Both the position numbers and the translations under genes were made by a program. From IMG/VR virus record IMGVR_UViG_3300045988_115450, positions 1 to 64,000 of that record: a DNA stretch of 64,000 bases; one strand, written 5' to 3'. Positions 1,910 through 60,107 of this stretch are shown one piece after another. The stretch is from a virus. Within the stretch, counting starts at the first letter, position 1; every line of letters starts with the position of its first letter. The notes beneath the pieces were generated by a model. The model was given only the letters and a program-made list of their open reading frames with translations. It searched no databases and had not been told where the DNA came from.

Positions 1910-1923
1910 ATTCTCTCCTTGTC

Positions 1924-1946
1924 AGGGCTGCCCGTTGGGCAGCCCT
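1924..1946. other. GC-rich hairpin AGGGCTGCCC-GTT-GGGCAGCCCT without a U-tract
   Basis: 10-bp perfect stem between thyX and the xis-like gene. Confidence 0.5.
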
Positions 1947-1961
1947 AAATTCATACGCTAG

Positions 1962-17580: not shown

Positions 17581-19527
17581 ATTATTGTCCGCAAGCAACT
17601 CGTCAATCATTGGCGACGGGTTATGATGTGGAACTCTACTTATCAAATCATTTCTATACGACGCGCCAGACGGGCGAATACACGCAGTCACCAACGACAT
17701 ATCAAAGATTGACTTCGTGTTGAAGTCCTTTAGCATCTTTCCTGCAAAAGGAGATTCCATCTGAAAGATGCCGATATTGGAAACCATCATGTCTTCCCAG
17801 ACCTTTTGGTCATCCCAATCAATTTCGTGCGACTTTGGGTAGGGGATGTTCGCCAGCTTACAGGCATCACGGATGATCTGTAGTGTGTTCAGAACGAGCA
17901 TGTCATACTTAACAAGAGACACTTCATGGATTTCTTCCATGTCAATTTGTAGAACGACGCCGCTATCCTTGTGGTGAAAGACACCGTAATTGTCATCCAG
18001 CGTAACCGGGCTAATCACGATACCAGCCGGGTGTACAGATTGAGATACTCTTGTGTTCAGGAAACCATCAAAATAATAAAAGACTTCCTTATATTTTTGC
18101 TTACACGCCTCTGCGTCTTTCCCATAATCTGCTTTAATCTTTGCTACCAAACTTACTTGGTATGGATTCTCGCCTTTGTCTGCTTCTGGATGTTGCTCTG
18201 CCCATTTATGTCTAAACCCGCGCACAATCTCTTCGATAGTCGCCAGGTCTTTTAATGTGCCGCAAGATGGAACGAAAGCAGTCTTTTGTTGCCCGAACCG
18301 TTCTATAATGTAGTTGAAGATTTTGGGCCGGTCGTCTTCAATAACGTCTGTGTCGATATCCCCCACTTCAATTCGATCCTCATTGCAAAAGCGACTAAAC
18401 ACTGTGTGCCATGTTTCTGAATTAACATCTGTGATGTCTGTTATATAAGCGACTCTTGACCCAGCCACACTGCCACGACCAGGACCTGTTATAATCCCAT
18501 TTTCATGACACCATGTAAGAATCTCACTCATAGATTGCATGAACCCGCACATCCCAAGTTTTGTGAAGACTCTAACCTCTTCTTTAATTGCGTCTCGGAA
18601 CGCTTGCTCTTGCTCTCTTGGGATGATTCCGGCCTCTAACTTTGCTTCTAGCTTTTCGTTAATATTCTGGATAAATTTTTCTCTATCTTCTTCTGCAGAC
18701 CCATAAAGGATTGGGTATTTCAAAGAAGTATCTAATTCAAACTCCTCAACCTGATTTGCCATCAAGACTGTATTGTCTATCGCGGCCTGCCATGCTTCTT
18801 CTGGGATAGCGTCCTGCTTTCTAAATGCTTCTTCCAATTCCTCACGCGACTTATACGTCAGGTCAAAATCATCTTCCGTGTCATAATGCTTGCTCTTTGC
18901 ATAAGCAAGTAATGACCGGCACTCAGCGTAGTATTGATTGATACTATGTGTATCTGTCGCTGCAATCAAAGGAATACCATACCTCTGGGATAGCGCCGCC
19001 AGATGCCTGTTGTAGACAATCTGATCCTCGCAGTCATTCGGTTGAATCTCAAGATAGTCGTACTTCTTTACGAGCTTCTCGTAGTACGGATGGCTTACGT
19101 CCAGCTTGTTTAGTGGTGAAGCCAAACAAGCGGACGTTTTGATAATATTCGGAGAGATATTCAGAAACTCATCAAACGAAAGTCGCCCGACGTAGTATTT
19201 ATGTTCTTCATCCGTTGACATACTAAGCAACTTATTAAGTTCCAAAAACCCTTGTCGGTTCTTCGCTATCAGAATCGTATGATAGTTATCTCTCACTTTC
19301 TCATGTAGAGATTCCGTCAAATAAATTTCCACGCCATGTAGGTATTTAATTCCCGCTTCATCGCAGGCCATCTTTTTAGCAACCCACCCACGGGTGTTGC
19401 CATGCTCGGTAAAACAAATAGCTTTTTGTCCGAGCTGCTTTGCCTTTTCTATGTAGAGGTTAAAATCTGTCGTCGAGTCCAACAGCGAATAGTCGCTGTG
19501 AACATGATACGCAACATAATTGTCCAA
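17581..19527 (-). CDS. dnaE: DNA polymerase III alpha-type polymerase, exon 1 (PHP + palm)
   Basis: PHP start YVAYHVHSDYSLLDS and catalytic region GDIDTD. Confidence 0.8.
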
Positions 19528-19530
19528 CCA

Positions 19531-22377
19531 TCAGCCTCCTCCCTGTATCACACCATACACTTCCGACTCCGCGTCCAATGGAGCACATGGAACGCGGGTA
19601 GTGTAAATCTTGTCATCCCATTTATATCTACGGTCGTACTCTTCATAGTTCGTGAAGAACCTCCGACACGCTTCATCGTAGTATAAGCCGAGTTCAAAAC
19701 CAGCCCTTCCTCGCATACGATCTTTTGTTACAGACACAACGCAGGAATACTGCGAGAACTTTGATGTCCCTTGCTCTTTTTCGTCCTGCCGCACCCTCCG
19801 TAGAGACAACGTCCGATGCGCGAGATTTGGAAGGTTCGATGTGCCACCAATGTCATACAGCGCAACCGCTCCCGGTGTTGTTCCGCTTGGAATCTTTCTT
19901 GGATGTGCAACTAGAATTACACACACATTAAACTTCGATGCAAACTGAATCAGCCAGTTGACCAGCTCGGTCTGCTTGTCATACTTGTTCTCATCAGATG
20001 AATGTAGGTCTATAGTCATCAGATTGTCCAGCAGGAACAACTTACTGCCATACTTTCTAGCTGAGGCTTCCATAGATTCCTGGATTGACTCAATATCATT
20101 CGGCCATTCATTCTTATACACAAACCACTGGCCTCTATAACAATCGTTGATTCTTTCTTTCGCTTCTCTCGAAGCAACCCAGTAGATCGCGCCGTTCTTA
20201 CCGGTGTGTTCTTCAACATTCCTCGGCCCTGCAAGCAAGTAATTCATCCACGCCTTACTCATGAAGTCCGGCAGCTCTCTTGAAAAGATCCATGCGCCTC
20301 TGTTTTGCTCAAGCGCATTACAGATAAGCTGGTACAAGAAGCTGGTCTTGCCGGAACCTGGCGTGCCGGTCACGAGCGTTAACGTCCCGAAGAACAGTTT
20401 AAACAGTTCCCTGTCAAGGCTTTCAATACCAAAATAAATCCCGTCCAAGTCACTGATATTAACGTCCTCGACGTCACTAAGATCCATCACACTGTCAATC
20501 GGAGATTCCTTCGCACTAAGGATTGCGTTCATCACCGCTTCTTTTCCCTTGTAATAAAGCAACTCATTTAAATCCTTAATGTGCCTACCAGTTGCTTCAT
20601 CTATTGGCGGGATGTCTACCACCTTTGTCCTCCAGGAACCAAGTCTAGGGCACACATCTTTTGCCATTTGATAACCAGCTTTATCATTGTCAGAGCAGAT
20701 AATAATTTCGGAAAACTGGTCTAGCCAATCCATATTCTCCTCAATCCAGTGGTGATTTTGAGAACCTAAAGGAACGCTCACCGCGTTTGTATATCCGGAC
20801 TCGATAGCAGCCATTGCGTCGCAGTTGCCTGTAACAAAGATTGTCCCGTATTGCCTCACCAAGATCATTCCACTTGGAACCGCCACGCAATAAACTGGAC
20901 CGCTGTAATACTGCGCGTCATATGTAATATTGTTTAAATCCGCTTTTTTCTTACCTGTGATTGACACACGATAGCTCCCGTCCAATGTAGACAACTGGTA
21001 TTTAACAGAGCATTGCTGTCCGCTTGTGTGAGCAATCGTCTGCATCACATTAGCGTTATCCAGTTTGCAGGCATAGCCTGCAGTCCATTTCTGAAATCGC
21101 CGAAGAATCACGAGCTTTTGTATTTCAGACGTGGTGCTGATCCACGAATAAGAGACGGGTTCTATGTGAACGTGTGACGGGATCTTGAACAGCAATTTAA
21201 AACCATAATCAGAAACTGGCGTCTCAACGTAACTAACGGATAGCTTCTTGAGAAGCCGCCGCAACCTACGCCGTTTTCTCTTTTCTGTCGTTAAGAGTGT
21301 GTACTCACCAGTGCTCTTGTCATAACTACAGTTCTCCGATATAGCAATTGATAGTTCGACTTCATCCGTAGTGAGAAAAAACCCATCGCCCGAATAACTC
21401 GTTGTAATTGGAGCCGATTTATACCAACCATCTGACAATTTCCTCGCCTTCGTCTTCTCTAGGAAACCAAGAGCATTATAAGTTACAATATTGTGACCTT
21501 CAGTTACACACGACACATAGTTATCCGCAGCAATGAAGGATAGGAACCCTTCGTAGTGCTCGTTGATAATTGCAACCGGTCTTACAAATTTGCCACGCAG
21601 TTTCGACCAAGTACCAACAAATAGGTCATCCGCACACACCGAATACACGTCCTGCCCGTGATATTCATCAAATCGAACCCATCCATCAGGCGTTAAAATT
21701 TCTGCGTCGCCAGGGAAGCATTCACCTTCAGTTATCAATAACGGTTGACTTATGTTTACCCTGTTCATATTAAAAAGGAGCGGACGAGTGTCCGCTCCTT
21801 TCTGACACCAGTTCTTAGCCTCACCTTTTGACTTGTCGATTTTTCTGGCCGGTCGGTATTTCACCATCGTCAGCACGTCGTTTGTGTCGTAGTAGTTGAA
21901 CACAGCATTACCATGTTCATCTTCTCGCACATCACAATGGTCTAGCGTCTTCTCACTAATCTTTCTCGTAGCCATGTACTGGTTTACGATTGACCGATCT
22001 CTTAACGGAGTCTGCTGAGGATAGCGATACCCCCTATGAGTCTTGATGCCTTTCTCTCCAAAGCTATATGCCATCCCAGCTTCTTCAAAAGTTTTCTCTG
22101 CCGCTTCAAGATATGTATCGCCAGACATCACATAGGCGTCAATAATATCAATATTGCAACCGCATCCAAAGCAGTGAAAACCATAGGCTTTCGGATTATA
22201 GATAAAGCTCGGAGTGTCTTCTTGATGCACCGGGCATAATGATTTCAAGTTAGACGGATCAAACAATTTAAGGTCAAGTGTTTCAGCAATCAAGAATGGA
22301 GTTCTGTCTCCGATCTTCTCTTTTGCCTTTTGTAATTTTTCCTTTTCAATTAGCATTTCGTTCTCACCATCTACCAC
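19531..22377 (-). CDS. Bifunctional primase-helicase (Zn finger + Toprim + DnaB/gp4-like ATPase), intein-containing
   Basis: CPVHQEDTPS..CFGCGC Zn finger, Toprim ITEGE|CDAMAAIE, Walker A GTPGSGKTS and Walker B LFLLDNL. Confidence 0.85.
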   Translation of the reverse strand: MVDGENEMLIEKEKLQKAKEKIGDRTPFLIAETLDLKLFDPSNLKSLCPVHQEDTPSFIYNPKAYGFHCFGCGCNIDIIDAYVMSGDTYLEAAEKTFEEAGMAYSFGEKGIKTHRGYRYPQQTPLRDRSIVNQYMATRKISEKTLDHCDVREDEHGNAVFNYYDTNDVLTMVKYRPARKIDKSKGEAKNWCQKGADTRPLLFNMNRVNISQPLLITEGECFPGDAEILTPDGWVRFDEYHGQDVYSVCADDLFVGTWSKLRGKFVRPVAIINEHYEGFLSFIAADNYVSCVTEGHNIVTYNALGFLEKTKARKLSDGWYKSAPITTSYSGDGFFLTTDEVELSIAISENCSYDKSTGEYTLLTTEKRKRRRLRRLLKKLSVSYVETPVSDYGFKLLFKIPSHVHIEPVSYSWISTTSEIQKLVILRRFQKWTAGYACKLDNANVMQTIAHTSGQQCSVKYQLSTLDGSYRVSITGKKKADLNNITYDAQYYSGPVYCVAVPSGMILVRQYGTIFVTGNCDAMAAIESGYTNAVSVPLGSQNHHWIEENMDWLDQFSEIIICSDNDKAGYQMAKDVCPRLGSWRTKVVDIPPIDEATGRHIKDLNELLYYKGKEAVMNAILSAKESPIDSVMDLSDVEDVNISDLDGIYFGIESLDRELFKLFFGTLTLVTGTPGSGKTSFLYQLICNALEQNRGAWIFSRELPDFMSKAWMNYLLAGPRNVEEHTGKNGAIYWVASREAKERINDCYRGQWFVYKNEWPNDIESIQESMEASARKYGSKLFLLDNLMTIDLHSSDENKYDKQTELVNWLIQFASKFNVCVILVAHPRKIPSGTTPGAVALYDIGGTSNLPNLAHRTLSLRRVRQDEKEQGTSKFSQYSCVVSVTKDRMRGRAGFELGLYYDEACRRFFTNYEEYDRRYKWDDKIYTTRVPCAPLDAESEVYGVIQGGG
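20824..21720 (-). mobile_element. Intein (299 aa, residues C220-N518) inside the Toprim EGExDA motif
   Basis: Block A CFPGDAEILT, block B TEGHNIVT, C-terminal VYCVAV..ILVRQYGTIFVTGN followed by +1 Cys. Removing it restores LLITEGE-CDAMAAIESG. Confidence 0.75.
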
Positions 22378-24848: not shown

Positions 24849-24925
24849 ATTTCACCTCATCTCATTTTTTGCGCTGGCTGCGTTGCAAAATAACCTTATA
24901 TTTTTTAACCGCTCAGCGTGATTAT

Positions 24926-24954
24926 ATTATATAGCTTTATTTTTCAAATGTCTA
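24926..24954 (-). promoter_or_regulatory. Sigma-70-type promoter TAGACA-17-TATAAT
   Basis: Minus strand reads TAGACATTTGAAAAATAAAGCTATATAAT. Same family as 53389-53417 and 63140-63168. Confidence 0.7.
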
Positions 24955-24962
24955 CCCCTTTT

Positions 24963-24989
24963 CGCGAAACTCGTCTGACGAGTTTCGCG
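24963..24989. promoter_or_regulatory. 27-nt perfect palindrome CGCGAAACTCGTC-T-GACGAGTTTCGCG just upstream of the -35
   Basis: Identical copy at 53426-53452, in the same position relative to its promoter. Confidence 0.65.
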
Positions 24990-36419: not shown

Positions 36420-37667
36420 TTATTCGCTTGCCTTGAAATTGTATACAGGCTTGATGATGTTCGCGACCTCTACGGTGTCCGCAATATTGGCAATGATTTC
36501 CTCCATCGTCTTGTAAGCCATCGGACTTTCATCAATGGTGGAACGGCTGACAGATGTGGTGAAGATACCCTTCATGGAATCCTCATACTCCTCGAGAGAA
36601 ACCAGCTCTTTCGCCTTACTGCGGCTCATTACTCGACCAGCACCATGAGGAGCTGAACAGTTCCAATCATCATTACCCTTGCCGATACCGATGATACAAC
36701 CATCACGCATATTGATAGGAATGAGGAGCTTTTCACCAGCTTTCGCAGAGATAGCCCCCTTGCGAACCATATTCGTTCCAAACTCAATGTAGTTGTGAAC
36801 GGTCTCGAACATCGGCAAATCCCAGTAGGCGATGTCACTTCCGAACAAACTGCTGACGATTCGATTTGCGATTTCATATCGGTTGGTTGCCGCAAAATGC
36901 TGACACGCTTTCATGTCGTGAAGATAATCTTCCCGGTGCTTTCCTGTGAGGTAGCACAGTTCCTTCGGAATCCCGAGAGGGTTCGGAGAGAACTTTCTAT
37001 GAAGCTCGGCAATCGCTTTCTGAATTTCCTTTTTGCGCCCCTGCGCCTTGTAATCAACAATCAGTTTCTCTTGTATAGCAATGAGTTCGTCCTTACCTTG
37101 CATAGTCTCAACGGCAAGGTTCTGATAGTATTCGGCAACCTGTTTTCCCAAATTGCGGCTACCAGTATGAATCACAAGGTATTTTACCCCTTCGGAATCA
37201 GTATCAATCTCGATGAAATGGTTTCCACCCCCGAGAGAACCGATGGAGCGAACCAGTCGTTCCGGGCCTTTGAGTGCCTTATAGCACCGAATATATTCAA
37301 TTACCTCGGTAGGGTAGATAGCCGTCTCGTTTACTTCACGACCACTTGGGACGTTCTCCCGGATAGCCTTGTCGAGATAATCGAAGTCAATGTCAATCTT
37401 ACCCAGTTCCACGGTCAGCATACCGCAACCAATGTCAACGCCAACGATGTTCGGAATGACCTTATCCCCCAAATCAGCCGTAAAGCCAACGACACAACCA
37501 GCCCCAGCATGAACATCGGGCATGATACGAACCTTGCAATCTGCGAAAGCTGGTTGTTTGACAAGGGTATAAATCTGATTCAGAGCCGTAGGCTCGATGT
37601 TATCAGTAAAAATCTTTAAGTCGCTCATTACACCACCATCACAATCCATGTTAAAATAATCTGACAA
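36420..37667 (-). CDS. rtcB: RtcB 3'-phosphate RNA ligase
   Basis: MPDVHAGAGC, GGGNHFIE, HTGSRNLG and APHGAGR motifs. Confidence 0.9.
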   Translation of the reverse strand: MSDYFNMDCDGGVMSDLKIFTDNIEPTALNQIYTLVKQPAFADCKVRIMPDVHAGAGCVVGFTADLGDKVIPNIVGVDIGCGMLTVELGKIDIDFDYLDKAIRENVPSGREVNETAIYPTEVIEYIRCYKALKGPERLVRSIGSLGGGNHFIEIDTDSEGVKYLVIHTGSRNLGKQVAEYYQNLAVETMQGKDELIAIQEKLIVDYKAQGRKKEIQKAIAELHRKFSPNPLGIPKELCYLTGKHREDYLHDMKACQHFAATNRYEIANRIVSSLFGSDIAYWDLPMFETVHNYIEFGTNMVRKGAISAKAGEKLLIPINMRDGCIIGIGKGNDDWNCSAPHGAGRVMSRSKAKELVSLEEYEDSMKGIFTTSVSRSTIDESPMAYKTMEEIIANIADTVEVANIIKPVYNFKASE

Positions 37668-41410: not shown

Positions 41411-42577
41411 TTAGTTTTTGAGATCCTTCTTCATCGTGGCTTCAATATCAAAGCCAAACTTCTGACTATAGCGAGTGATAACTCCATCAATACTTCCTCT
41501 GTTAACCATTCGATAGTAGCTCATAAGACCGAGCACATATTGCAGTTGCTCAAGAGGCCAATAAGTTCCGCTCTTTCTGTCCTTCGCGTAATTGAAAAGC
41601 ATCGCCTCGAAGTTGCGCTTCTTCTTATACCCAATCGTGATCTGGTTGTCCTTGTTGATCATCACACCGAGTACCCAATTCTTATGATACGAGGGGCCGT
41701 AATGAGTTTTCTCATCTTTGATGAGATAACTGGCCCCGAAAAGTCTAAACAGATTTTCAATCTTTCTGATAATGAAGCTCTTATCAAACTCAATACCACA
41801 GCTGATGTTCATATCATCAGCATATCTGGTATACGCGAACCTTCTACCCTTTTCATCAGGGTTGTTTTCCGGGTTCTGCAGGCTACGCAGAAACTTACTG
41901 AACTCAAAATCAAACGGAATCATAATCAGATTGGTCAGCATCGGGCTGATCGGCGTTCCCATAGGTAGACCTCCATCCAGGAAGCAAAGCGACAGAGCTT
42001 TTCTAAGCTCTTCTCTCCCGCTTTTGCACTCCATAATGAGACAGAACGGGTAAATCATAGACAGCGCGTTCCATACAAACTCCGGAGTGGTATTAGGAAA
42101 GAAACCGCTGATGTCAGTCTTTAAATACCACTTGCTCTTATTCCACTGATGGACTTTTGCGGCGTCTACACTACTTCTGTTTTTGACATAAGCGTATGCA
42201 GCGGCATGGCTGCTCGCATAAAACTCAGATTCTAACAGCAGTTTTAGCTCTCGCAGACAATTCATCAGTTCGTCGTCCGGCGCGTTAATCTCTCTCATGC
42301 CGCCGCTCTTTTTCGGGATAAAAAACTTATGGTAATGTGTATGAAGATCGCTTTCAAGCAGTTCCTGATGCTTTTTGTTAAATGCTCTCAGTAGTTCAAT
42401 CTTTTTCCCCGTGTCAAACCCTGCCAGGATTCTCTCGGGCAGTCTCTCATATGCAACTGTTCTAGTATATAGAGATCTCGATTCCCTCACATGTTTATCT
42501 TGAAGCAGCGCAGACATAATATCCTCTAAAGAAATCTGCTTATACGGCTCTGTAATTCTTGCTGTTACATAAATCAT
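41411..42577 (-). CDS. Reverse transcriptase, retron-type
   Basis: KKSGGMREINAP (motifs 1-2), YAYVKNRS, LKTDISGFFPN, GLPMGTPISPMLTN, YTRYADDMNIS (YADD), then NWVLGVMINKDNQITIG (retron VTG-like region) and LGLMSYYRMVN. Confidence 0.85.
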   Translation of the reverse strand: MIYVTARITEPYKQISLEDIMSALLQDKHVRESRSLYTRTVAYERLPERILAGFDTGKKIELLRAFNKKHQELLESDLHTHYHKFFIPKKSGGMREINAPDDELMNCLRELKLLLESEFYASSHAAAYAYVKNRSSVDAAKVHQWNKSKWYLKTDISGFFPNTTPEFVWNALSMIYPFCLIMECKSGREELRKALSLCFLDGGLPMGTPISPMLTNLIMIPFDFEFSKFLRSLQNPENNPDEKGRRFAYTRYADDMNISCGIEFDKSFIIRKIENLFRLFGASYLIKDEKTHYGPSYHKNWVLGVMINKDNQITIGYKKKRNFEAMLFNYAKDRKSGTYWPLEQLQYVLGLMSYYRMVNRGSIDGVITRYSQKFGFDIEATMKKDLKN

Positions 42578-42594
42578 ATTATTCTCCTTGCTTT

Positions 42595-42935
42595 TATCTG
42601 AAACTATATATGGATTTGGATGTCAGTACGAGATGCTCATCGCGGAGCTTGTCGTCGTCTGAGACGGTGAAATCCCTGACTTGGCGTTTATTGTTTGCCG
42701 GATACCCCTGCTGGTGGCGGATGTTGACCCTGTCGAACGAATATCCTTCTGGTTTTTCCTGTTGTTCGGGCGCTGCTTCTCATCAGAGAAGATGCCACCG
42801 GGGTGTTAAGCCTTCTTGGAGGGCACCAAGCATTGGTCTGCTATCGCACGCAGCGGGGTTCCTCTTTCGGACGATGTGCCACTCTTCCGTTCCGGTAAGA
42901 GTTTCTATTTTTTTAAATAGAAAGTGCTTTCAGAT
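42595..42935 (-). ncRNA. Structured RNA copy A (about 341 nt) directly 5' of the RT; retron msr/msd-like candidate
   Basis: 9-bp closing helix (42595-42603 / 42927-42935). On the minus strand this is followed by G, hairpin 42901-42923 and hairpin 42881-42900. Homologous to 48537-48883. The only ORF here is a junk-like antisense one. Confidence 0.65.
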
Positions 42936-43037
42936 ATTTAGATTGAATTGGTTGTTAGCAGGCGTGCCATTCCCCTGCATCTCTTTAGCCATTAAGGCGC
43001 GTGGCGACACGAAATTTCCACCTCAAACAACCAATAT

Positions 43038-43706
43038 TTAATATGCTTCCATAGTAAAATCAAAGGCGTCGATCAAAACTATCTTCTTGATCGAACGCCC
43101 ATTCACAAAATTCATGAAGTTTGCTACTGCACAAGAGCAAATCATCCGCACAGAAGGAGCGATACTAAGCTCCAGGTTACATGCAGATCGAGGAGTTTCA
43201 GCCAGAGCTTCCTCTTGAGTAAACTGCATGGAGTTAATCAGATTTTCAACCATCGCACTAGAACTCCAGTCAGCCGCAAAGTGTTGCGCGTCCGTCAGCC
43301 GAAGTCTGGTATCAAACACAGCTTTGATATACGGGTTTCTAGCATTTTCTTCGCAAATTTTTCTGCGGAGATCAATGTTGTCCACCATAAGGAAGACATA
43401 GCCGGACAGACGCTGGTTGGTATACCCCTCCTGAACTACTTCAATACCATTTGCATCAGGATTGATACTCAACATCATATCTTTCACGGCTTCAGCTTTA
43501 TTTCTACCGATGTCGCTATCATTGAACATCTGATTCGCGATATTGTGCGACTCAACCTTGTCAAAATCGTACAGAGTGACCTTCTCAAGCCCAGCTCTTG
43601 CCAACAATTCGGCTACAGTGGAACCGGACGCACCACAACCGATGATATGTACTCTTTCTTTAACCTTCGTGGGATTAAAGAACTCAATACTCTTCGATAA
43701 ATTCAT
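43038..43706 (-). CDS. Minimal ThiF/MoeB/E1-like adenylyltransferase
   Basis: HIIGCGASGSTVAELLARAGLEKVTLYDFDKVESHNIANQMF..DIGRNKAEA (Rossmann GxGxxG plus the E1 DxD..N..RQ-like region). Confidence 0.8.
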   Translation of the reverse strand: MNLSKSIEFFNPTKVKERVHIIGCGASGSTVAELLARAGLEKVTLYDFDKVESHNIANQMFNDSDIGRNKAEAVKDMMLSINPDANGIEVVQEGYTNQRLSGYVFLMVDNIDLRRKICEENARNPYIKAVFDTRLRLTDAQHFAADWSSSAMVENLINSMQFTQEEALAETPRSACNLELSIAPSVRMICSCAVANFMNFVNGRSIKKIVLIDAFDFTMEAY

Positions 43707-43718
43707 CTTTATACCTCC

Positions 43719-43997
43719 TTATAGCATTAAACAATTCAAAAATACATCACTATCGACTTTACTTTCAATCGGCTCAAACATCCAAGAAGCCCAAGCAACA
43801 AATCTTAATTTGCCTCTTTCTTCAATGCAAATACGTTCAACTTGAATGCCGTTAATCAAGGATGTCAATGAGCGCACTGTTATGATCTTACCGCAATAGC
43901 GCGTTTTATCCCCTTCAAATATCCCGTGATCATTTTTAGAAAGAATCGCCGTTCCACTACCTGTATCTACGGAAAACAGATCAGGGTCAGACATCAT
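43719..43997 (-). CDS. Tail-family paralog P1 (divergent), C-terminus ...FLNCLML
   Basis: Shares the C-terminal tail with P2-P5. A 16-aa N-terminal remnant ORF (MKLEDMYVGQKVRVRS) lies just upstream at 44004-44054. Confidence 0.5.
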   Translation of the reverse strand: MMSDPDLFSVDTGSGTAILSKNDHGIFEGDKTRYCGKIITVRSLTSLINGIQVERICIEERGKLRFVAWASWMFEPIESKVDSDVFLNCLML

Positions 43998-44061
43998 GTC
44001 TTCCTAACTCCTCACCCTGACCTTCTGCCCAACATACATATCTTCAAGTTTCATACGTCAC

Positions 44062-44394
44062 CTACAACAACAAACAGTTCATAAAAACCTGCTCATCAAT
44101 AGATTGCTTTAACCGCAACACACTTTTATAGAAAGACATCTCTTTTTTGCTAACCCTTACCCTGTACCAACCGCCAAGTTCATACTCAACGATCTCGCCG
44201 CCGTCTCTTATAAACTCTCTGAGGCAAGGATCGCCCTCCGCGTACATCACATCGTCGGCGTATATAAATCTTTCGTTTGTGATGATGTCTACGCTCTGCG
44301 ACACAGCCCCATTCGGAAATACCGCCCGTAAGTTATCATTAAATTCATCCCACGTTTTTGGAATAAACTCAACCCGCTGCCCAGGTCTAAACAT
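44062..44394 (-). CDS. Tail-family paralog P2, C-terminus ...FMNCLLL
   Basis: MFRPGQRVEF..WDEF...GGWYRV...FYKSVL...DEQVFMNCLLL. Confidence 0.6.
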   Translation of the reverse strand: MFRPGQRVEFIPKTWDEFNDNLRAVFPNGAVSQSVDIITNERFIYADDVMYAEGDPCLREFIRDGGEIVEYELGGWYRVRVSKKEMSFYKSVLRLKQSIDEQVFMNCLLL

Positions 44395-44403
44395 TATATC
44401 ACC

Positions 44404-44745
44404 TCACAATAATAAGCAATTTATGAACAATTTTTCATCAATTGACCTCATGTCTTCTTTCAGACACAACACGCTTTCGTGAAATTTCAGTTTTACTCCA
44501 TTTATATTCACCATATACCAACCAGTAGCATAGTACTTGATAATCTCACCTCCATTTATTAGAAGCTCGTTAAACCAAGAATCGCCTTCCCCATAAAGCA
44601 CCCCTGCAACCAATATCATTTCTCTATGAGTAGTTGAGAATTCATCTAATATCATATCTCTCGCAAACAACTCCATTAAAGCATCCCGAAATTCATCCCA
44701 TGACTTTGGGGCAAGCGTAACTTTCTGTCCAAGTTCAAACATCAT
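44404..44745 (-). CDS. Tail-family paralog P3, C-terminus ...FINCLLL
   Basis: MMFELGQKVTL..WDEF...TGWYMV...FHESVL...DEKLFINCLLL. Confidence 0.6.
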   Translation of the reverse strand: MMFELGQKVTLAPKSWDEFRDALMELFARDMILDEFSTTHREMILVAGVLYGEGDSWFNELLINGGEIIKYYATGWYMVNINGVKLKFHESVLCLKEDMRSIDEKLFINCLLL

Positions 44746-44752
44746 ATTACCT

Positions 44753-45082
44753 CTATAGCAGCAAACAATTCATAAGTACCTCTTCGTCAACATATGCTTC
44801 TTCCATCGACCGTAGCATCGTCTCATAGAACCACGCTCTTTCTCCGCCAAAGTCTACAATGTACCAACCACACTCGAAGTCTAATTCAATCACGCCACTC
44901 ATCCTGCGTAACTTATAAAAATCGGGAGCGCTATATCCTGCTGCACTAGCTGCAAGATACCCAGTGGTATCACAGCTCGTAAACCTTTTTGCGCTGCGAG
45001 GAAGATGCTTTAGGTAAGCGCTGCAAAACTCATCCCAGCTCCTCAATGCTATCCTGACTCGTTGTCCGATCTCGAACATCAT
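44753..45082 (-). CDS. Tail-family paralog P4, C-terminus ...LMNCLLL
   Basis: Start reassigned to MMFEIGQRVRI, preceded by RBS GAGGAG. CGWYIV...FYETML...DEEVLMNCLLL. Confidence 0.6.
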   Translation of the reverse strand: MMFEIGQRVRIALRSWDEFCSAYLKHLPRSAKRFTSCDTTGYLAASAAGYSAPDFYKLRRMSGVIELDFECGWYIVDFGGERAWFYETMLRSMEEAYVDEEVLMNCLLL

Positions 45083-45092
45083 ATCAACTCCT

Positions 45093-45437
45093 CTATAACA
45101 GCAGGCAATCCATAAGTGTCTTTTCGTCAACACTTTTTTCTTTTAATTGACACGGCGCTGTTTCGCCCGGCCCACCCACCAAACACTCATCTCTTACTTC
45201 GCCAAAGTCAACGCGCCAAATCCAATAGTCATCCGGTTCCAGATAAATTGTCGCTCCGTATTTATCTGGAGCATTAAAATTGTCACCTTCAATCATTTCG
45301 CATCCATCATCGACGCATTCTTGAAACACTGAATGAAACCTACGTTTCACGTGTTCCACCGCACTCTCCAAATTCCAATAAACACCGGATAAATCAATAC
45401 CCTGGTCTGTTTCTGTTATCACACAATATACCTTCAT
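45093..45437 (-). CDS. Tail-family paralog P5 (divergent body), C-terminus ...LMDCLLL
   Basis: Start reassigned to MKVYCVI, preceded by RBS AAAGGAGAAG. The tail is VDEKTLMDCLLL. Confidence 0.55.
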   Translation of the reverse strand: MKVYCVITETDQGIDLSGVYWNLESAVEHVKRRFHSVFQECVDDGCEMIEGDNFNAPDKYGATIYLEPDDYWIWRVDFGEVRDECLVGGPGETAPCQLKEKSVDEKTLMDCLLL

Positions 45438-45611
45438 ACCGGTCTTCTCCTTTCTTATGTACCTCTGAACAGCTAACCAGCTGTTTAAGTTCAAAAGTTT
45501 TCTGCTCTGGGAGTAGGAAAACTTTTGAAGCGACACAGCCATTTGTTACTCCCTCGTTCCGACAAGAGTGATATGTAATTTAACATATCTGTACAGGCAC
45601 ATATGTTTTTT

Positions 45612-46298
45612 TTACTTAATTAACATCTTACCGTCACGCCAATCGGGCCGCTCATCAATAATTTTATCTGCGTCCTCCATGAATTCTTCAAGCTCAACCG
45701 CGGCGTTCATAATCCACTCGATGCCATCCTGTACATCACGCACGTCCACCTTCTCAAACCGGTCAATGTTATCGAAAAACCATCTGCACAAATCATATAC
45801 AGCGGGGTTCCATCGTTCCACTGCGAGTTCCACATTGTCGCTTTCGTATAGGATGCCTTCTCTAACATCATAAACCTGTGAAGATATGTAGCCTTTCTTA
45901 TTGAAAATCTGAAAGACGTAGAAATCATCAACGTCTGTCAGCAAATCTGCTCTATACTTTATATCCGTAGAAGATGGACTGACACCCATGTTCACATGAG
46001 AATGCCCGTACAACCGAACCTTATTGAATATCTCCGTGTTAAGAGAATCCTGCCAGTTCACATAGTCCGCATCTTCAGGTTCGGTGCTTGCCGACGTGAC
46101 CTTCTGAGGGAATACCAAGACGTCCTCCACGATAAACTCAGCTGGATTTTCCAACCTTCTTACAACTCCGTGCCATCCAACCTCCAGATTCCTATTCATA
46201 ACAAGCAAACACGTCTTCATCCATGCCTTCTTACTGTATACGATTTTGCACGGATTTGTCGCGGCCAACAAATCCGTTGCATTAGTTGCCTTATTCAT
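45612..46298 (-). CDS. JAB/MPN (JAMM) metallopeptidase
   Basis: Exact JAMM signature HxHx7SxxD (GHSHVNMGVSPSSTD), with an upstream Glu (LEVGWHG). Confidence 0.8.
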   Translation of the reverse strand: MNKATNATDLLAATNPCKIVYSKKAWMKTCLLVMNRNLEVGWHGVVRRLENPAEFIVEDVLVFPQKVTSASTEPEDADYVNWQDSLNTEIFNKVRLYGHSHVNMGVSPSSTDIKYRADLLTDVDDFYVFQIFNKKGYISSQVYDVREGILYESDNVELAVERWNPAVYDLCRWFFDNIDRFEKVDVRDVQDGIEWIMNAAVELEEFMEDADKIIDERPDWRDGKMLIK

Positions 46299-47832: not shown

Positions 47833-48072
47833 TCAGATCGCGTTACCTTGCGCCTTAACAATAGCACTCAGAGTACAAATACCAGCGGCACCAAGTTCGG
47901 CAAAAGTGCAATCCATATCATCAGGCGTCAGAATCGTGCCGGAAAGAGAATTGACGCTACGGCTGCACTCAATTCCGATCTTCTCGAACAGAGAACGAGG
48001 GGTCTCTACATGTTCATCTACGGCCTGGCTATCAAAACGGCGGGTGGTACTTCTAACATTCACAATAATCAT
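47833..48072 (-). CDS. Small beta-grasp/ubiquitin-like (ThiS/MoaD-like) candidate, C-terminus ...VKAQG-NAI
   Basis: 79 aa. MIIVNVR..., a mid helix, then GTILTPDDMDCTFAELGAAGICTLSAIVKAQGNAI. This is a ThiS/MoaD-like layout with a Gly 3 residues from the end. Confidence 0.45.
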   Translation of the reverse strand: MIIVNVRSTTRRFDSQAVDEHVETPRSLFEKIGIECSRSVNSLSGTILTPDDMDCTFAELGAAGICTLSAIVKAQGNAI

Positions 48073-48113: not shown

Positions 48114-48503
48114 TTAGCCAGCTACTACGATCTTGGAACTGACCCGTGCCATCATAACGTCGATCTCTTCCAGCGCTTCGCGCACCTGGGCTTCAATCTT
48201 TTCTACCTTCTCGATAACAGAAGCATATCTCTCGGCAACAACCTCACGTACGGAACGGTCAGCTTCGGTAATAAGACTCACAGTTACGACCGCACGACCA
48301 GAGCCATCACAAGACTCAGCCTCATAGATAATACCGGTCGGTGCTACTACGCCTCTCTCGCCAGCGAGAGTGTAAAACAGTGCGTTGCCATCTTCGTCCA
48401 GCAGTTGCACAGACTTAGGCCGGTACAGAGCTGCGCGATTGATTTCTTCAAGAGTGAAAGCACTCTTGAGTGTTACTGCGTTACCACACACAATAATTTC
48501 CAT
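48114..48503 (-). CDS. 129-aa protein ending ...KIVVAG; first gene downstream of RNA copy B
   Basis: ORF preceded by RBS AAAGGAGAAG. C-terminal Gly. Confidence 0.5.
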   Translation of the reverse strand: MEIIVCGNAVTLKSAFTLEEINRAALYRPKSVQLLDEDGNALFYTLAGERGVVAPTGIIYEAESCDGSGRAVVTVSLITEADRSVREVVAERYASVIEKVEKIEAQVREALEEIDVMMARVSSKIVVAG

Positions 48504-48536: not shown

Positions 48537-48883
48537 TATAAAGTGATTCTATATATGGAATGATAGACCTAACCCGTGCGTTAGTACGCTGACGGGCTTG
48601 GTTATCTGAGGTACTGTGTGATCGACGTCGCTCCAACTCCGCATCGCTTTGGCGTTTGATGCCTTACGCTGTAACGGTGGTAGGCAAGTTGTGCGGCTTT
48701 CTTTATATGCTTCGCTTAGTAATCTTAGCCTTCTTGTCGCATCCATGACGCCGAGAGGTTTCTGGTCGAGAGCCATCGAGGTTGGTGCAACCTTTGCGAT
48801 GCTTCCCACACCTTCGGACGATATGTTACTCTCCCATTCTGGCAAGAGCCTCTGTGAATTTCAGAGTTTGCAATCACTTTATA
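48537..48883 (-). ncRNA. Structured RNA copy B (about 347 nt), a diverged paralog of copy A
   Basis: 12-bp closing helix (48537-48548 / 48872-48883) at the equivalent position but with a different sequence. It is followed by G and then two hairpins. Shared blocks are CCATATATAG, CGTCCGAA, CTCTTRCCRGAAYGGRAGAG and AAACGCCAA. Confidence 0.65.
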
Positions 48884-49978: not shown

Positions 49979-50053
49979 TGGCAGCGCCGGACTGAGATCG
50001 AACAGTCTTCCACGGAGTCAAAGTCCGTTGCATTACCGTTATGCTACGGCGCT
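49979..50053 (-). tRNA. tRNA-Gln (TTG), CCA encoded
   Basis: AGCGCCG/CGGCGCT acceptor and ACGGA-CTTTGAC-TCCGT anticodon arm. Confidence 0.8.
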
Positions 50054-50164
50054 ATATAAATCAAGCAGAGCAGAGCAGAGTTTAAAGCCATTCCAGGCTA
50101 TGTAAAGAAAGGAGGTGGTTTATCAACAATAACAGGTAGGAGAATCATTTTCTGTTGCTTGATA

Positions 50165-50239
50165 TGGGGTAGGCGACGAGTGCCGATCTCGCGTTTCCGG
50201 TTTGGAAGACCGGTGTTCTAGCCGTTGAACTACGCCTAC
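50165..50239 (-). tRNA. tRNA-Gly (TCC), CCA encoded, atypical T-loop
   Basis: GTAGGCG/CGCCTAC acceptor and CCGGT-CTTCCAA-ACCGG. The T-loop reads ATCGGCA instead of TTCRANY. Confidence 0.7.
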
Positions 50240-50269
50240 ATTTTTGCGGTTCCGCAAACCGCATTTTTT

Positions 50270-50899
50270 TTAATTCATATATAAATCATAATAACTTTGT
50301 TTTCTTCTTGGTTTCAAATCTGGATTTTTTAAACGCCTTTTGATGAACTCAACTGTATTATCCAGCCCATAGTTCCTGACGTATGTATTGATCCTGTTTG
50401 CTCCCAAACCTAAAGTTTTAGCCCAGTCCTTCCCAGTATGTATCGTTCCGTCAACATCAATAAGCGAAGTTGTAGACTTGTATTTCGAATTATCTGCCAA
50501 TGTTACCCATCTGCAATTATCAGGAGAATAATCCCCGTCCCAATCAATTCTATCAATAGTCAAACCATCATCGTACCCGTTAGTTAATGACCAACTCTCA
50601 AATAATTCTGGATTGCGCATCCAATCATCACAAACCTTAACACCCTTAGCGCCATACCATCTGTAGCTCTTATTACTCTTATCATAGCACCTAGCTTTCA
50701 TATCGCTAAAAATTCTCCGGAGCTTGTCGTCACTCCATGAAGCATCATAATTTATATAACCCCCGCTTCTTCCGATATGTCTACAAGCTTTCGCCTGCTC
50801 AATATGCCTTTTCTGTTTGTTCGTTTCAAACCCACACTCAGCACATCTCACATGGTATAATCTATGCCCGTCCCTATGCCTGAAATCACACTCATACAA
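50270..50899 (-). CDS. Free-standing HNH homing endonuclease inside the tRNA cluster
   Basis: DRIDWDGDYSPDNCRWVT..DN and a C-terminal HTH-like tail. Same family as the two intron HNH genes. Confidence 0.8.
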   Translation of the reverse strand: MYECDFRHRDGHRLYHVRCAECGFETNKQKRHIEQAKACRHIGRSGGYINYDASWSDDKLRRIFSDMKARCYDKSNKSYRWYGAKGVKVCDDWMRNPELFESWSLTNGYDDGLTIDRIDWDGDYSPDNCRWVTLADNSKYKSTTSLIDVDGTIHTGKDWAKTLGLGANRINTYVRNYGLDNTVEFIKRRLKNPDLKPRRKQSYYDLYMN

Positions 50900-51047
50900 G
50901 ACATCGAAAATACCTATCCTAGTACCAACAATATTCTCTTTTTCCAGAATATCACCATCTTTCTGCGTGTTGCTAAATAATAATCCGATGAGAGTGCTGC
51001 CCTCTCGCCTGCGTTGTTCACTGTACTACTGTTATACTAATCGGATG

Positions 51048-51128
51048 TACGGGCGACAAGATTTGAACTTGCAAGCCTTACGGCACCGGGGCCTAAACCC
51101 GGCGTGTATACCGTTCCACCACGCCCGC
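51048..51128 (-). tRNA. tRNA-Leu (TAG), long variable arm
   Basis: GCGGGCG/CGCCCGT acceptor and CCGGG-TTTAGGC-CCCGG. Confidence 0.75.
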
Positions 51129-51210
51129 ATGGCACCACTAAGTCATGGTCGGCTGCGCATTTATCCTTTTTTGAATCGTGGTAGATGATTTTGCTTCGTA
51201 CAACCACGCA

Positions 51211-51285
51211 TGGACTGAGTGGAGAATTTTGAAATCTCGACCTCTGGTTCCCAAAACCAGCGTTCTGCCTCTGAACTACACCCAG
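51211..51285 (-). tRNA. tRNA-Pro (TGG), CCA encoded
   Basis: CTGGGTG/CACTCAG acceptor and CTGGT-TTTGGGA-ACCAG. Confidence 0.75.
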
Positions 51286-51288
51286 ATA

Positions 51289-51363
51289 TGGAGGCCGATG
51301 CGAGTTCGAACTCAGCGTCTGTGGGTTACAAAGCCACTGTTTTACCACTTAAACTAATCGGCC
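51289..51363 (-). tRNA. tRNA-Thr (TGT), CCA encoded
   Basis: GGCCGAT/ATCGGCC acceptor. Anticodon loop TTTGTAA, with a C:C at the loop-closing pair. Confidence 0.7.
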
Positions 51364-51513
51364 ACGCACCCCGTTTTGCGGGGTGGCTATGTAAGGGAAT
51401 CAAAAAGGGGAACTCCTGTCTCTTCCAGGATGCCAACACACTACTACGGACTGCCAGAGGCAAACCGCCACTTTTCAGGTGTCATAGTCCGCAAACTATG
51501 GGCTTTTCTTTAG

Positions 51514-51595
51514 TGCGGGATAAGAGACTTGAACTCTTACGTCTATCGACATCGAGACTTAAACACGAGGTGTCTACCGATTCCACCAATCCCGC
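51514..51595 (-). tRNA. tRNA-Leu (TAA), long variable arm
   Basis: GCGGGAT/ATCCCGC acceptor and anticodon loop TTTAAGT. Confidence 0.75.
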
Positions 51596-51948
51596 ATATT
51601 GAACTTGCTACAACCCAGCCTGGTGGTTGACCCGTGGGCGTTGATAACTGACCCAAACCATTAACCCAGGATTTTGTAAAACTTTAACCGTTAACCTTTG
51701 ATTCTTGAACTTTAATCTTCTGAAGATCTTTGAGCCTTGAATTTTGAAATTTTAACTTTGAAGTTTGAGCTTTACAGCAACATTTCTTCTATAAGAAATT
51801 AGATTAACAGTCCAATCTTTTTGTAAGCGCAAAATTTCAAGTTTTGCTTTGTAGTTGGCACATATTTGTTCATTTTTACATCGAACCAAGTGCCGTCAGC
51901 ACGATGGGTTACCGTTTTAGGTTTTCGGGTTGCAGCAAGTTGCTTATT

Positions 51949-52602
51949 TTAGTATTCTACGGTGATTGTAGTGGTCGCATTGGACACAGATAGCTGAGAA
52001 TCTACATCCGCAGTAAACGTGTCAATCCAATCGCTCAAAACCTTGATTTCATTACCAATGTCAAGCGGATCAACGAGTTCATACGTATTGTTGGCAATAT
52101 ACTCTTCTCTCAACCGCTTAACGACCTCAGAATCCTTGGTTGTCTTGGCCTCTTTAGGCTGGCACTGGAGGAAATTCATGATATACTGTTCAGCTTTCGC
52201 TTCAATCCACTCGCCTTCATGTTTGGAAACCTCAGCACGGGCTCTTTCGTACTGCCGGACCATTACATCAAGCAAATCTTTCTTAGCCATGATTCCATGG
52301 CTTTTCATTTCGATGGCTTCGGCTACGGTGTAAGGTTCGCCGCCAATTACCACCGGGGTTTTGGCATTGGAGAGCACAACTGCTCTCTTAATAGCCGTCC
52401 GACGAGCAATCAAGTCCGTAACAGACTGATAATCAGACTTCATATCCTTCTTGAGGGTTTCGACCAGCACACCGCCGATCTTTTTGTCGCTCACTTTCTT
52501 ACTGGCAACGAAGGTTTTACCAGAAGTAGCATTGAAAATTCTAGCGTCCAAAATTTTCAGCTCTGCAAGAGCTTTATGGACGGTCATAGTTTCTTTGTTC
52601 AT
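51949..52602 (-). CDS. Hypothetical 217-aa protein embedded in the tRNA region
   Basis: ORF preceded by RBS GAGGAAC. No motif recognised. Confidence 0.5.
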   Translation of the reverse strand: MNKETMTVHKALAELKILDARIFNATSGKTFVASKKVSDKKIGGVLVETLKKDMKSDYQSVTDLIARRTAIKRAVVLSNAKTPVVIGGEPYTVAEAIEMKSHGIMAKKDLLDVMVRQYERARAEVSKHEGEWIEAKAEQYIMNFLQCQPKEAKTTKDSEVVKRLREEYIANNTYELVDPLDIGNEIKVLSDWIDTFTADVDSQLSVSNATTTITVEY

Positions 52603-52653
52603 ATTAGTTCCTCACTTTCTTATTTATGGAATTAGATTTTTATCGTGGTATCG

Positions 52654-52744
52654 TGGTCTCCCTGGGTGAATTCGAATCACCATATACCTTATGAGGGCCT
52701 TCCAATTATAAGTTGGAAGCTATAACCAATTTAGCTACAGGGAG
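52654..52744 (-). tRNA. Type II-like tRNA (19-nt variable region) with anticodon TAT, CCA encoded
   Basis: CTCCCTG/CAGGGAG acceptor, GCTA/TAGC D stem, TCCAA-CTTATAA-TTGGA, variable AGGCCCTCATAAGGTATAT, GGTGA-TTCGAAT-TCACC, discriminator A. Confidence 0.7.
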
Positions 52745-52933
52745 ATATTTGTTCAGCAACCACAACCGCCCTATCAATCAGTCGGCCTAACCAAAAGATA
52801 GGGCTGGATTGTGTTGCCCAACCGTGCCTGAGAGCTTTCTTGCCTAGCCTGTACTTAACCAGGTGTCTGCAATCAATGTTTAGGTTGCTGGTTTTGACCC
52901 TCGCTCTAGAACCAGTTAACTAGAGCGATTGAG

Positions 52934-53019
52934 AGCTACTAGACGGAATTGCACCGCCTTGAAGTCATAAGTGAGGCGCGAGAGGAGTTACGCCCACCTC
53001 TTCACCTGCTTGGAGTAGC
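52934..53019 (-). other. tRNA-like element / degenerate tRNA (no canonical anticodon arm)
   Basis: Acceptor-like GCTACT/AGTAGC and T-arm-like GGCGG-TGCAATT-CCGTC. The central stem AGAGG/CCTCT carries an 11-nt loop. Confidence 0.3.
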
Positions 53020-53024
53020 ATATG

Positions 53025-53100
53025 TGGCACCAGCACTAAGATTCGAACTTAGAACTACGGTTTTGGAGACCGCCGTTTTTCCACTTAAAACTATGCTGGT
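53025..53100 (-). tRNA. tRNA-Trp (CCA), CCA encoded
   Basis: ACCAGCA/TGCTGGT acceptor and GCGGT-CTCCAAA-ACCGT. Confidence 0.8.
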
Positions 53101-53336: not shown

Positions 53337-53388
53337 ATGCACCCCATGCAATTTAATCTTGTGTTTTTTAACCGCTCACCGTGGTTAT

Positions 53389-53417
53389 ATTATATAAGAT
53401 TATTTTTCAAACGTCAA
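53389..53417 (-). promoter_or_regulatory. Sigma-70 consensus promoter TTGACG-17-TATAAT driving the tRNA cluster
   Basis: Minus strand reads TTGACGTTTGAAAAATAATCTTATATAAT. Confidence 0.75.
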
Positions 53418-53425
53418 CCCTTTTC

Positions 53426-53452
53426 CGCGAAACTCGTCTGACGAGTTTCGCG
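53426..53452. promoter_or_regulatory. Second identical copy of the 27-nt palindrome CGCGAAACTCGTCTGACGAGTTTCGCG
   Basis: Exact repeat of 24963-24989, in the same position relative to the -35. Confidence 0.65.
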
Positions 53453-59994: not shown

Positions 59995-60107
59995 GCAGGC
60001 ATAGACAGAATCCACCTATGTTATCCCTGCGACCTCGCAGGCCAGGGCGATCCCAGCCTACGAACGCTCCCGGCCTAACGCCTGTTTATAGTCGCCGGGA
60101 CGACTCT

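Follow-up and report, generated by a model that had tools for sequence, protein, structure and literature searches.

What kind of element is the reverse transcriptase (RT) gene at positions 41411..42577 of this phage DNA, and why does it share a cassette with genes for ubiquitin-like conjugation? The window analyzed, by which we mean the whole stretch of 64,000 nucleotides (nt), comprises positions 1 to 64,000 of IMG/VR virus record IMGVR_UViG_3300045988_115450. All window coordinates are on that scale, and every gene and RNA unit of the cassette lies on the minus strand. The RT ranks with retron RTs, the RNA directly upstream of it has the anatomy of a retron msr-msd, and it closes a conserved cassette that reads, in order, p129, a ubiquitin-like (Ubl) protein, P493, a JAMM protease, a ThiF/E1-like enzyme, the noncoding RNA (ncRNA), and the RT. 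The cassette is probably a new retron system in which a minimal, E2-less ubiquitin-like conjugation module serves as partner or effector and one RT uses several templates, carried by a temperate gut phage of ~106 kb.

The RT open reading frame (ORF), taken from the ORF listing of the window, runs from 42577 to 41411, starts with ATG 8 nt after an AAGGAG box, and encodes 388 amino acids (aa). The protein has a ~75-aa N-terminal extension, RT motifs 1 to 7, a YADD box, and an xLG/ITIG region. An initial annotation of the window, made from the letters of the DNA, had reported readable RT palm motifs and a retron-type rather than a group II enzyme. Every string quoted in that annotation is present in the translation (KKSGGMREINAP, YAYVKNRS, LKTDISGFFPN, GLPMGTPISPMLTN, YTRYADDMNIS, NWVLGVMINKDNQITIG, and LGLMSYYRMVN), and Pfam RVT_1 matches residues 87 to 294 (E value of 2.5e-13; 50.7 bits against a cutoff of 29.6). 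The YADD box, whose loss in homologs would by that annotation have spoken against a retron-type RT, is found in 129 of 130 full-length RT homologs from related loci and is invariant in an alignment of 20 RT sequences that are 43 to 76% identical.

Profile searches against retron, defense-associated reverse transcriptase (DRT), and group II collections agree with the retron call, the best wide-coverage matches being retron RTs and not group II or diversity-generating retroelement (DGR) enzymes. The best 25 PADLOC matches are all retron RT models; RT_II-A matches at 5e-41, with residues 73 to 374 on profile positions 20 to 297 of 304, and RT_I-A matches at 1e-38. In NCBIfam, retron_St85_RT scores 1e-47 (162.9 bits) and the Ec67 family scores 1.4e-23, while group_II_RT_mat (TIGR04416) reaches 1.5e-18 (67 bits against a cutoff of 300) and the DRT profiles Drt2 and Drt3a reach 3e-6 and 3e-3. 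When a profile of 20 family members was compared with PDB sequences, the retron Ec83 RT ranked first (1.4e-33), followed by other retron RTs (Ec78 and St85-family enzymes at ~1e-25 to 1e-29; Ec67, Kva2, and Ec86), with group II RTs first appearing at ~1e-12. By this ranking, the ORF is placed as encoding a retron-clade RT. More than 2,100 homologs of the RT occur in public data. The best tblastn match is from an unannotated fecal phage (41.8% identity), and megablast against GenBank phages returned no near-identical known phage.

Retron RTs are marked by an NAXXH motif in region X and a VTG motif in region Y (Mestre et al. 2020). Region X of the present family reads DAxxxH (VDAAKVH in the window protein); H143 is invariant and is followed by Q-x-N, the N of the motif is replaced, and the spacing is off by one. 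Region Y reads NWxLGxMxN in 127 of 130 homologs. The initial annotation had described a VTG-like region after the YADD box: its quoted strings and an invariant glycine (G304) are there, but the motif itself reads xLG, with T replaced by L.

The annotation had also placed the gene directly 3' of a structured ncRNA, and this was borne out. The 460-nt gap 5' of the RT gene (42578..43037) is noncoding and structured, with a fold z-score of -3.4, and the RNA that it holds is, by its anatomy, a retron msr-msd. This RNA, unit C, spans 42595..42936 (342 nt) and consists of an a2/a1 repeat, two msr hairpins, and a GC-rich central msd. The a2 arm (42936..42928; UAUCUGAAA) and the a1 arm (42603..42595; UUUCAGAUA) lie 324 nt apart and pair exactly over 9 of 9 bp. 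The putative branching G (42927) stands directly after a2 and is followed by the two hairpins and a conserved GUAACAA-like tail. The a1 arm is preceded by CCAUAUAUAG, which ends in the opposing G, and the ATG of the RT gene is 18 nt past a1. Folded without constraints to minimum free energy (MFE), 42595..42936 again forms the a2/a1 stem and both msr hairpins (z-score of -3.1). A covariance model built without the window's lineage matches the msr of unit C at 42934..42864 with 21.5 bits and an E value of 8e-4 (10 kb searched, filters off).

The same geometry was sought in related phages. Upstream regions were taken from 157 related loci, and the 131 that were nonidentical were tested for an exact repeat of at least 8 bp with its 5' arm at -200 to -400, its 3' arm at -10 to -75, and a G after the 5' arm. 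This geometry was present in 97 of the 131 regions, compared with a mean of 4.2 and a maximum of 8 in dinucleotide-shuffled sequences. The regions that have it carry 30 different 8-nt arm cores, such as ACUGUAAC, UUUGUGUU, CUAAUAAA, and GCCGCCGU; since 30 distinct versions of the arms are still paired, the a2/a1 pairing has been kept by compensatory change. Covariation also extends to msr hairpin 2, where double changes occur at 6 of 6 pairs on a MAFFT alignment. Among 95 sequences aligned by fitting to the covariance model, which favors the structure, hairpin 2 is paired in 98.9% of cases against 67.9% in shuffled sequences, with 194 double-change cells against 49.8, and slid registers of the same 95 sequences are paired in just 30 to 51%. 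The center of the msd is almost wholly different among phages whose RTs are 90 to 97% identical, whereas the msr and the box next to a1 are identical in them.

A second structured RNA lies in the same gap. A skipping-rope RNA (Rfam RF02924) at 42951..43031 (minus strand) scores 50.3 bits against a gathering score of 36.7 and sits between the stop codon of the E1 gene and the a2 arm of unit C. It was considered as the cognate RNA of the RT and rejected, being confined to the same phage species among 16 diverse RT loci: it is present in the closest relatives (loci L001, L002, and L007) and absent from L004 and 15 other RT lineages. This restriction to the closest relatives points to a lineage-specific insertion and not to a partner RNA of the RT.

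Unit C is one of three such elements in the window. With the covariance model derived from other lineages, two further msr-like elements, units A and B, were found on the RT strand inside the cassette, and units C, A, and B are the sole matches with E values below 0.01 in the 40- to 50-kb region. These E values are rough, since calibration was shortened; default filters missed unit C in a search of the whole window, and it was found with the filters off. Unit A (48537..48883; 347 nt) matches with 21 bits and an E value of 1e-3 and has a fold z-score of -4.3. Its a2 arm (48883..48872; UAUAAAGUGAUU) pairs over 12 bp with a1 (48548..48537), G48871 follows a2, two msr hairpins come next, and the CCAUAUAUAG box seen in unit C recurs at 48558..48549. 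The unit ends 34 nt before the start of p129, whose ATG is at 48503. Unit B (45456..45604; 149 nt) matches with 18.2 bits and an E value of 5e-3 and has a z-score of -4.6. Its arms (a2, 45604..45596; a1, 45464..45456) pair over 9 bp, including one G.U pair, and G45595 is followed by two msr hairpins and a 13-bp msd hairpin; the ATG of the next ORF is at 45437. In both units, unconstrained MFE folding recovers the closing stem and the msr hairpins. Three mechanically called ORFs overlap units A and B, namely, those of 98 aa (48549..48845) and 50 aa (48725..48877) and the 5' part of one of 149 aa (45093..45542). The ORFs over the units are probably noncoding, and the 149-aa ORF more likely starts at the ATG at 45437.

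Multiple units are also the rule in relatives. In 83 related loci, the covariance model gave 170 matches, all on the RT strand; the 165 that could be placed relative to an RT gene comprise 52 just upstream of it, 97 downstream, and 16 further upstream. An a2/a1 repeat of at least 7 bp was found for 129 units, and most of the others have a 6-bp repeat or none that was found. Units have a median size of 296 nt and number 1 to 8 per locus, mostly 2 or 3. Nearly all of the 129 units have a G immediately before a1 (TAG in 73, CAG in 25, and GAG in 7). A ribosome-binding site (RBS) and a start codon follow in 96 of these units, and another unit follows in 23. Units of one locus have the msr hairpin and tail in common and differ in their arms and msd. 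One RT therefore appears to serve several msr-msd templates. The largest array, in locus L167 (10319..13943), has seven msr-like matches in the 3.6 kb past the RT gene and eight in total; 1 of the 8 has an a2/a1 repeat longer than 6 bp.

The genes upstream of unit C are as constant as the RNA. The proteins encoded between 34 and 50 kb of the window were compared with the RT loci by tblastn: four proteins upstream of the RT are conserved, and the genes 3' of the RT are without conservation. At least 120 loci have the genes in the order P493-JAB-ThiF-RT, and ThiF lies upstream of the RT on the same strand in 138 of the 142 loci found through the RT that have enough flanking sequence. The association was also examined in reverse, starting from 80 loci at which ThiF homologs occur in viral contigs and searching 8-kb flanks. 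There, an RT is downstream of ThiF in 79 (the exception is cut by the end of its contig), JAB is present in 79, and P493 is present in 78. The Ubl protein p79 was found in 49 and p129 in 20 of these loci; the sensitivity of tblastn is limited for proteins this short. The five-gene order survives RT divergence down to ~37% identity. In a widespread relative, an RNase H gene stands between the Ubl and P493 genes. This reciprocal, order-preserving linkage, together with the ncRNA units interleaved with the Ubl genes in the window, argues for one system. Between unit B and the E1 gene, the window also has four tandem paralogous small ORFs (43719..45133, minus strand; 92 to 126 aa), which all end in NCL(L/M)L and are confined to the species group of this phage.

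The upstream genes encode the parts of a small conjugation module. At least 1,435 proteins of 75 to 79 aa make up the family of the Ubl protein p79 (47833..48072). They end in VVKADNA plus 0 to 8 variable residues; the window protein ends in KAQGNAI. By sequence its matches are marginal (ubiquilin UBL, E value of 0.22; ThiS, 0.46; by hhalign, ubiquitin, 0.0098, and ThiS, 0.086), so structure prediction was needed to settle its identity. The AlphaFold2 model (predicted local distance difference test score [pLDDT], 88.9; predicted template-modeling score, 0.77) has the order beta-beta-alpha-beta-beta-beta of a beta-grasp protein. Compared with PDB, all 50 matches listed are ubiquitin-, NEDD8-, ISG15-, or SUMO-type chains, with E values from 1.6e-4 and, for all but one, template-modeling scores of ~0.55 to 0.68. 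As modeled, p79 has a ubiquitin-like fold. The next conserved small protein, p129 (48114..48503), is fused to the C terminus of the Ubl protein in some phages (seven loci), and these fusions, with the variable tail after ADNA, fit processing of a precursor. We considered p129 as an E2 and rejected it, as it has no conserved Cys.

The two candidate enzymes of the module keep their motifs. The JAB/JAMM (MPN+) metalloprotease-like protein (45612..46298; 228 aa) carries the motif HSHVNMGVSPSSTD (HxHx7SxxD), which is present in 129 of 129 homologs; the PADLOC JAB profile matches the protein weakly (E value of 0.035), over the motif. Most homologs from loci L005 to L157 have a low-complexity C-terminal tail of 100 to 200 aa rich in K, G, D, and Y, which often ends in an acidic/aromatic patch and sometimes in LGG(K/E); the window protein is without most of this tail. 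The ThiF/E1-like adenylyltransferase (43038..43706; 222 aa) matches PF00899 at 5e-24, and its best matches in defense libraries are E1 domains of the E1-E2 proteins of cyclic oligonucleotide-based antiphage signaling systems (CBASS; 3e-17 in PADLOC) and of 6A-MBL Cap2. GxGxxG is found in 134 of 139 homologs, and Cys176, a putative catalytic Cys, is invariant. P493 (46291..47709) has ~472 aa if it starts, as is likely, with MFS at 47709, the mechanical ORF extending to 47772. It is modeled well by AlphaFold2 (pLDDT, 86) and gave no informative match in Pfam, PHROGs, PADLOC, NCBIfam, or PDB sequences or by Foldseek against PDB; its sole structural relative, found by Foldseek against BFVD, is an uncharacterized phage protein.

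From these parts, a mechanism can be proposed by analogy with known retrons. The RT would bind the conserved msr hairpin 2 and the GUAACA-like tail of its cognate RNAs and prime from the 2'-OH of the G that follows the a2 arm. The msd would then be copied, from just 5' of a1, into branched multicopy single-stranded DNA (msDNA), and RNase H, encoded by the host or, in some lineages, by the phage, would trim the template. Because the RNA has the priming geometry of retrons, msDNA synthesis is the most economical reading. On the protein side, the JAMM protease may trim the tail of the Ubl protein and so expose its C terminus, a step that fits the variable tails and fusions. The E1-like enzyme would adenylate the Ubl protein and perhaps transfer it directly. 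Archaeal SAMPylation is an example of Ubl transfer without an E2. P493 and p129 would act as target, adaptor, or effector, and complexes of RT and msDNA could be the sensor or the regulator of the Ubl module. In such a scheme, the Ubl genes would stand in for the effector of classical tripartite retrons.

Several observations weigh against a retron that works with a Ubl module. At 162.9 bits, the RT is below the NCBIfam curated cutoff of 235 for St85 (NF038233), the nearest named family, and neither retron signature motif is intact, VTG reading xLG and NAXXH reading DAxxxH, with just the G and the H kept. Membership in the St85 family or type II-A was not found, the RT being under the score cutoff and adjoined by ThiF, JAB, and other genes and by no NDT-type effector. 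The element thus has every retron feature that can be tested in silico save the two degenerate motifs, and it fails as a member of St85/II-A on score and partner genes. The fold of the msd, a hypervariable region, is a prediction (z-scores of -3.1 to -4.6), the closing stem of unit B is short and includes a G.U pair, making it the weakest of the three units, and priming from the G is read from the anatomy of the RNA, and msDNA is a predicted product. The Ubl family ends in VVKADNA plus 0 to 8 residues, without a C-terminal GG; library scans gave no E2/UBC match for any cassette protein and P493 has no PDB fold match; and P493 and p129 are without recognizable function. Finally, all loci were gathered through RT or ThiF searches, insertions of 0.9 to 1.9 kb often part ThiF from the ncRNA, and the adjacency could come from inherited synteny in one phage lineage rather than from joint function.

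The last point can be put as an explanation in its own right, in which an orphan retron stands beside an unrelated phage Ubl module and the two are adjacent through the inherited gene order of one lineage. All carriers do look like related large Clostridia-type phages, inserted genes that part ThiF from the ncRNA open gaps of up to ~1.9 kb, ThiF is downstream of the RT in one locus (L102), and four RT loci have no ThiF within 4 kb. Yet inherited order would have to explain why the other side of the RT is without conservation while the five-gene order holds to ~37% RT identity, and why the association is reciprocal, with an RT in 79 of 80 loci found through ThiF. In the window, moreover, ncRNA units also stand before the p129 and Ubl genes and after JAB, interleaved with the Ubl module, and in relatives an RNase H gene is embedded between Ubl and P493. 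We therefore regard an orphan retron as unlikely and prefer a single retron system that includes the Ubl module.

A retron-related RT might also use these RNAs in another way, making unbranched or concatenated cDNA as do some DRT systems, or the RNAs might chiefly be regulators in 5' untranslated regions. The position of 96 of 129 units directly before an RBS and start codon, and of 23 before another unit, would suit such a reading, as would the precedent of type VI retrons, in which, reportedly, effector translation is derepressed (10.1101/2025.10.22.683967). The degenerate VTG and NAXXH motifs and the length of the units (median, 296 nt), which would make the msd unusually large, point the same way. 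Against this, the a2/a1 stem, the G after a2, and the opposing G form the exact priming geometry of retrons, the RBS is outside the a1 arm and unsequestered, and the RT matches DRT profiles much more poorly (3e-6 for Drt2 and 3e-3 for Drt3a), so we consider such use of the RNAs improbable. Derivation of the RT from a group II intron or a DGR has already been refuted by profile ranking and the absence of intron and DGR RNA features. The RT does have weak similarity to group II enzymes (1.5e-18 for TIGR04416 and ~1e-12 in PDB), as is expected for any prokaryotic RT, but retron profiles match it 20 to 30 orders of magnitude better and over their full coverage. In line with the initial annotation, which had seen no maturase or endonuclease domain and no intron domain V-like sequence nearby, RVT_1 is the sole Pfam domain found, without a maturase (X) or endonuclease domain, and an Rfam scan of the window returned no group II intron RNA at gathering score. 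Nowhere else in the 64 kb does the upstream RNA recur over more than 14 nt, which excludes the template and variable repeat pair of a DGR. The sole long repeat in the window is intergenic, not A specific, and far from the RT. It is a direct repeat of 106 nt (24884..24989 and 53347..53452; 87% identity) that contains an AT-rich box and the perfect palindrome CGCGAAACTCGTCTGACGAGTTTCGCG and is probably a reused promoter or terminator element.

The surroundings of the retron-Ubl cassette support the phage setting that the initial annotation had given. Relatives that are 90 to 97% identical across the region are viral contigs of 104 to 109 kb, and the window encodes a DnaG-DnaB fusion, an intron-split DNA polymerase III alpha subunit, NAD ligase, NrdD, a PD-(D/E)XK nuclease, RtcB, and a tyrosine integrase, along with 8 tRNAs, two group I introns, and a pistol ribozyme. 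The integrase (461..1660, minus strand; Phage_integrase, 1.5e-24) implies a temperate lifestyle for the ~106-kb phage. The group I introns are at 17296..17622 and 6392..6683 (both minus strand), and the first parts two DNA polymerase III alpha pieces (ORFs 17530..19527 and 15412..16545). The pistol self-cleaving ribozyme (Rfam RF02679; 63.9 bits) is at 60028..60105 (minus strand). The tRNA genes form an array of eight just upstream of the cassette (49982..53100, minus strand), and in related phages L010, L013, and L014, tRNA arrays, transfer-messenger RNA, and drum RNA are just downstream of the RT. The RtcB RNA ligase gene is at 36420..37667 (minus strand; Pfam, 3.4e-59), and 14 of 80 related loci have an RtcB homolog at a distance of ~3.5 to 6.5 kb downstream of the RT. 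In the widespread relative that has the RNase H gene (L238 to L240; ~1..2400 and 19300..20228 of those loci), a YonO-like polymerase of the RNA-dependent RNA polymerase family (PF05183) and YonV_C are upstream of the cassette and an nSTAND3/AAA NTPase is just downstream. Relatives are binned with Oscillospiraceae, Ruminococcus, Lachnospiraceae, and other Clostridia. One Ubl homolog is recorded in the genome of a Ruminococcus isolate (Ruminococcus sp. AF12-5) and was seen on a contig as long as 499 kb, which suggests that some carriers, at least, are prophages.

Among RT profiles and solved structures, those of type I-A and II-A retrons (Ec83/Eco4, Ec78/Eco7, and St85/Sen2) come nearest. The ncRNA resembles theirs in its place, directly 5' of the RT gene (ret) and on the same strand, and in its layout, with a1/a2 repeats, a G that ends a2, two opposing Gs, and a structured msd after the msr hairpins. 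The partners differ, being Ubl, E1-like, and JAMM proteins, P493, and p129 in the window and PtuAB (ATPase and HNH) or an NDT-type effector in types I-A and II-A. The window RT differs from theirs in its conserved ~75-aa N-terminal extension, in having xLG for VTG, and in scoring below the curated St85 cutoff, and here several msr-msd units of ~300 nt each accompany one RT.

Retrons are known on prophages of Escherichia coli: Ec67 on phiR67 and Ec73 on phiR73 have a single ncRNA and Toprim-fused or NDT effectors and are accessory cargo on small P2/P4-like elements. The present retron resembles them in being on a temperate phage, as indicated by the tyrosine integrase of the window, and differs in being part of a conserved multigene cassette in the replication/tRNA region of phages of 50 to 150 kb. 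Minimal prokaryotic Ubl systems include archaeal SAMP/UbaA/JAMM1, Thermus TtuB/TtuC, bacterial Bil, and Cap2/Cap3 of type II CBASS. The cassette shares with them a beta-grasp Ubl protein, a ThiF-family E1, a JAMM protein with an intact motif, and variable Ubl tails and fusions that suggest precursor processing. Unlike them, it has no recognizable E2, its Ubl family ends in KADNA and not GG, its E1 is just 222 aa, and the module is tied to an RT and RNAs and is encoded by phages rather than by hosts.

Most E. coli retrons are related to prophages, and the 13-type classification of retrons includes no ubiquitin, E1, or adenylyltransferase partner (Mestre et al. 2020). In type VI retrons, reverse-transcribed single-stranded DNA is reported to derepress effector translation without abundant msDNA (10.1101/2025.10.22.683967). 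The present units resemble type VI in that an ncRNA is in the leader of a partner gene, and type VI is a precedent for reverse-transcribed DNA that controls expression instead of acting as an abundant antitoxin. No relation to type VI in sequence or partner genes was found, and the RBS is here outside the predicted structure. The searchable full-text literature, subscription-only papers excepted, yielded no retron with Ubl/E1-type partners and no such phage-encoded or multitemplate retrons. The Ubl-linked retron cassette is widespread and apparently undescribed. To our knowledge, all characterized retrons are host or prophage defense systems, each having a single template RNA and one of a restricted set of effectors (13 types). 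The cassette differs in being conserved across many large gut Firmicutes phages, in its new partner module, and in its multitemplate arrays with hypervariable msd.

What a phage gains from making msDNA is the question that the cassette raises. Tentatively, the system might act in conflict between phages or between phage and host, as superinfection exclusion or counterdefense; the integrase, the association of retrons and of E1/JAMM modules with defense elsewhere, and the hypervariable msd are the grounds for this. A core pro-viral role is somewhat less likely and is suggested by the fixed position of the cassette in the replication/tRNA region across deep divergence.

If the two modules cooperate, they would provide a testable link between reverse-transcribed single-stranded DNA and ubiquitin-like conjugation, which until now have been unconnected conflict toolkits. 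A gut-derived RT that accepts several templates of ~300 nt would also be of interest for retron-based DNA production and editing, and the additional ncRNA units matter for the annotation of phages because spurious ORFs are called across them. More speculatively, the cassette could represent an unrecognized class of retrons native to large gut phages, in which one RT makes several msDNAs from hypervariable templates and works with an E2-less Ubl machinery (Ubl, E1, JAMM, and P493). Should that be so, reverse-transcribed DNA would for the first time be linked to ubiquitin-like tagging, and, as the cassette keeps a constant place in the replication region of the phage, its role may be pro-viral or one of counterdefense rather than host defense, which would also be a first for a retron.

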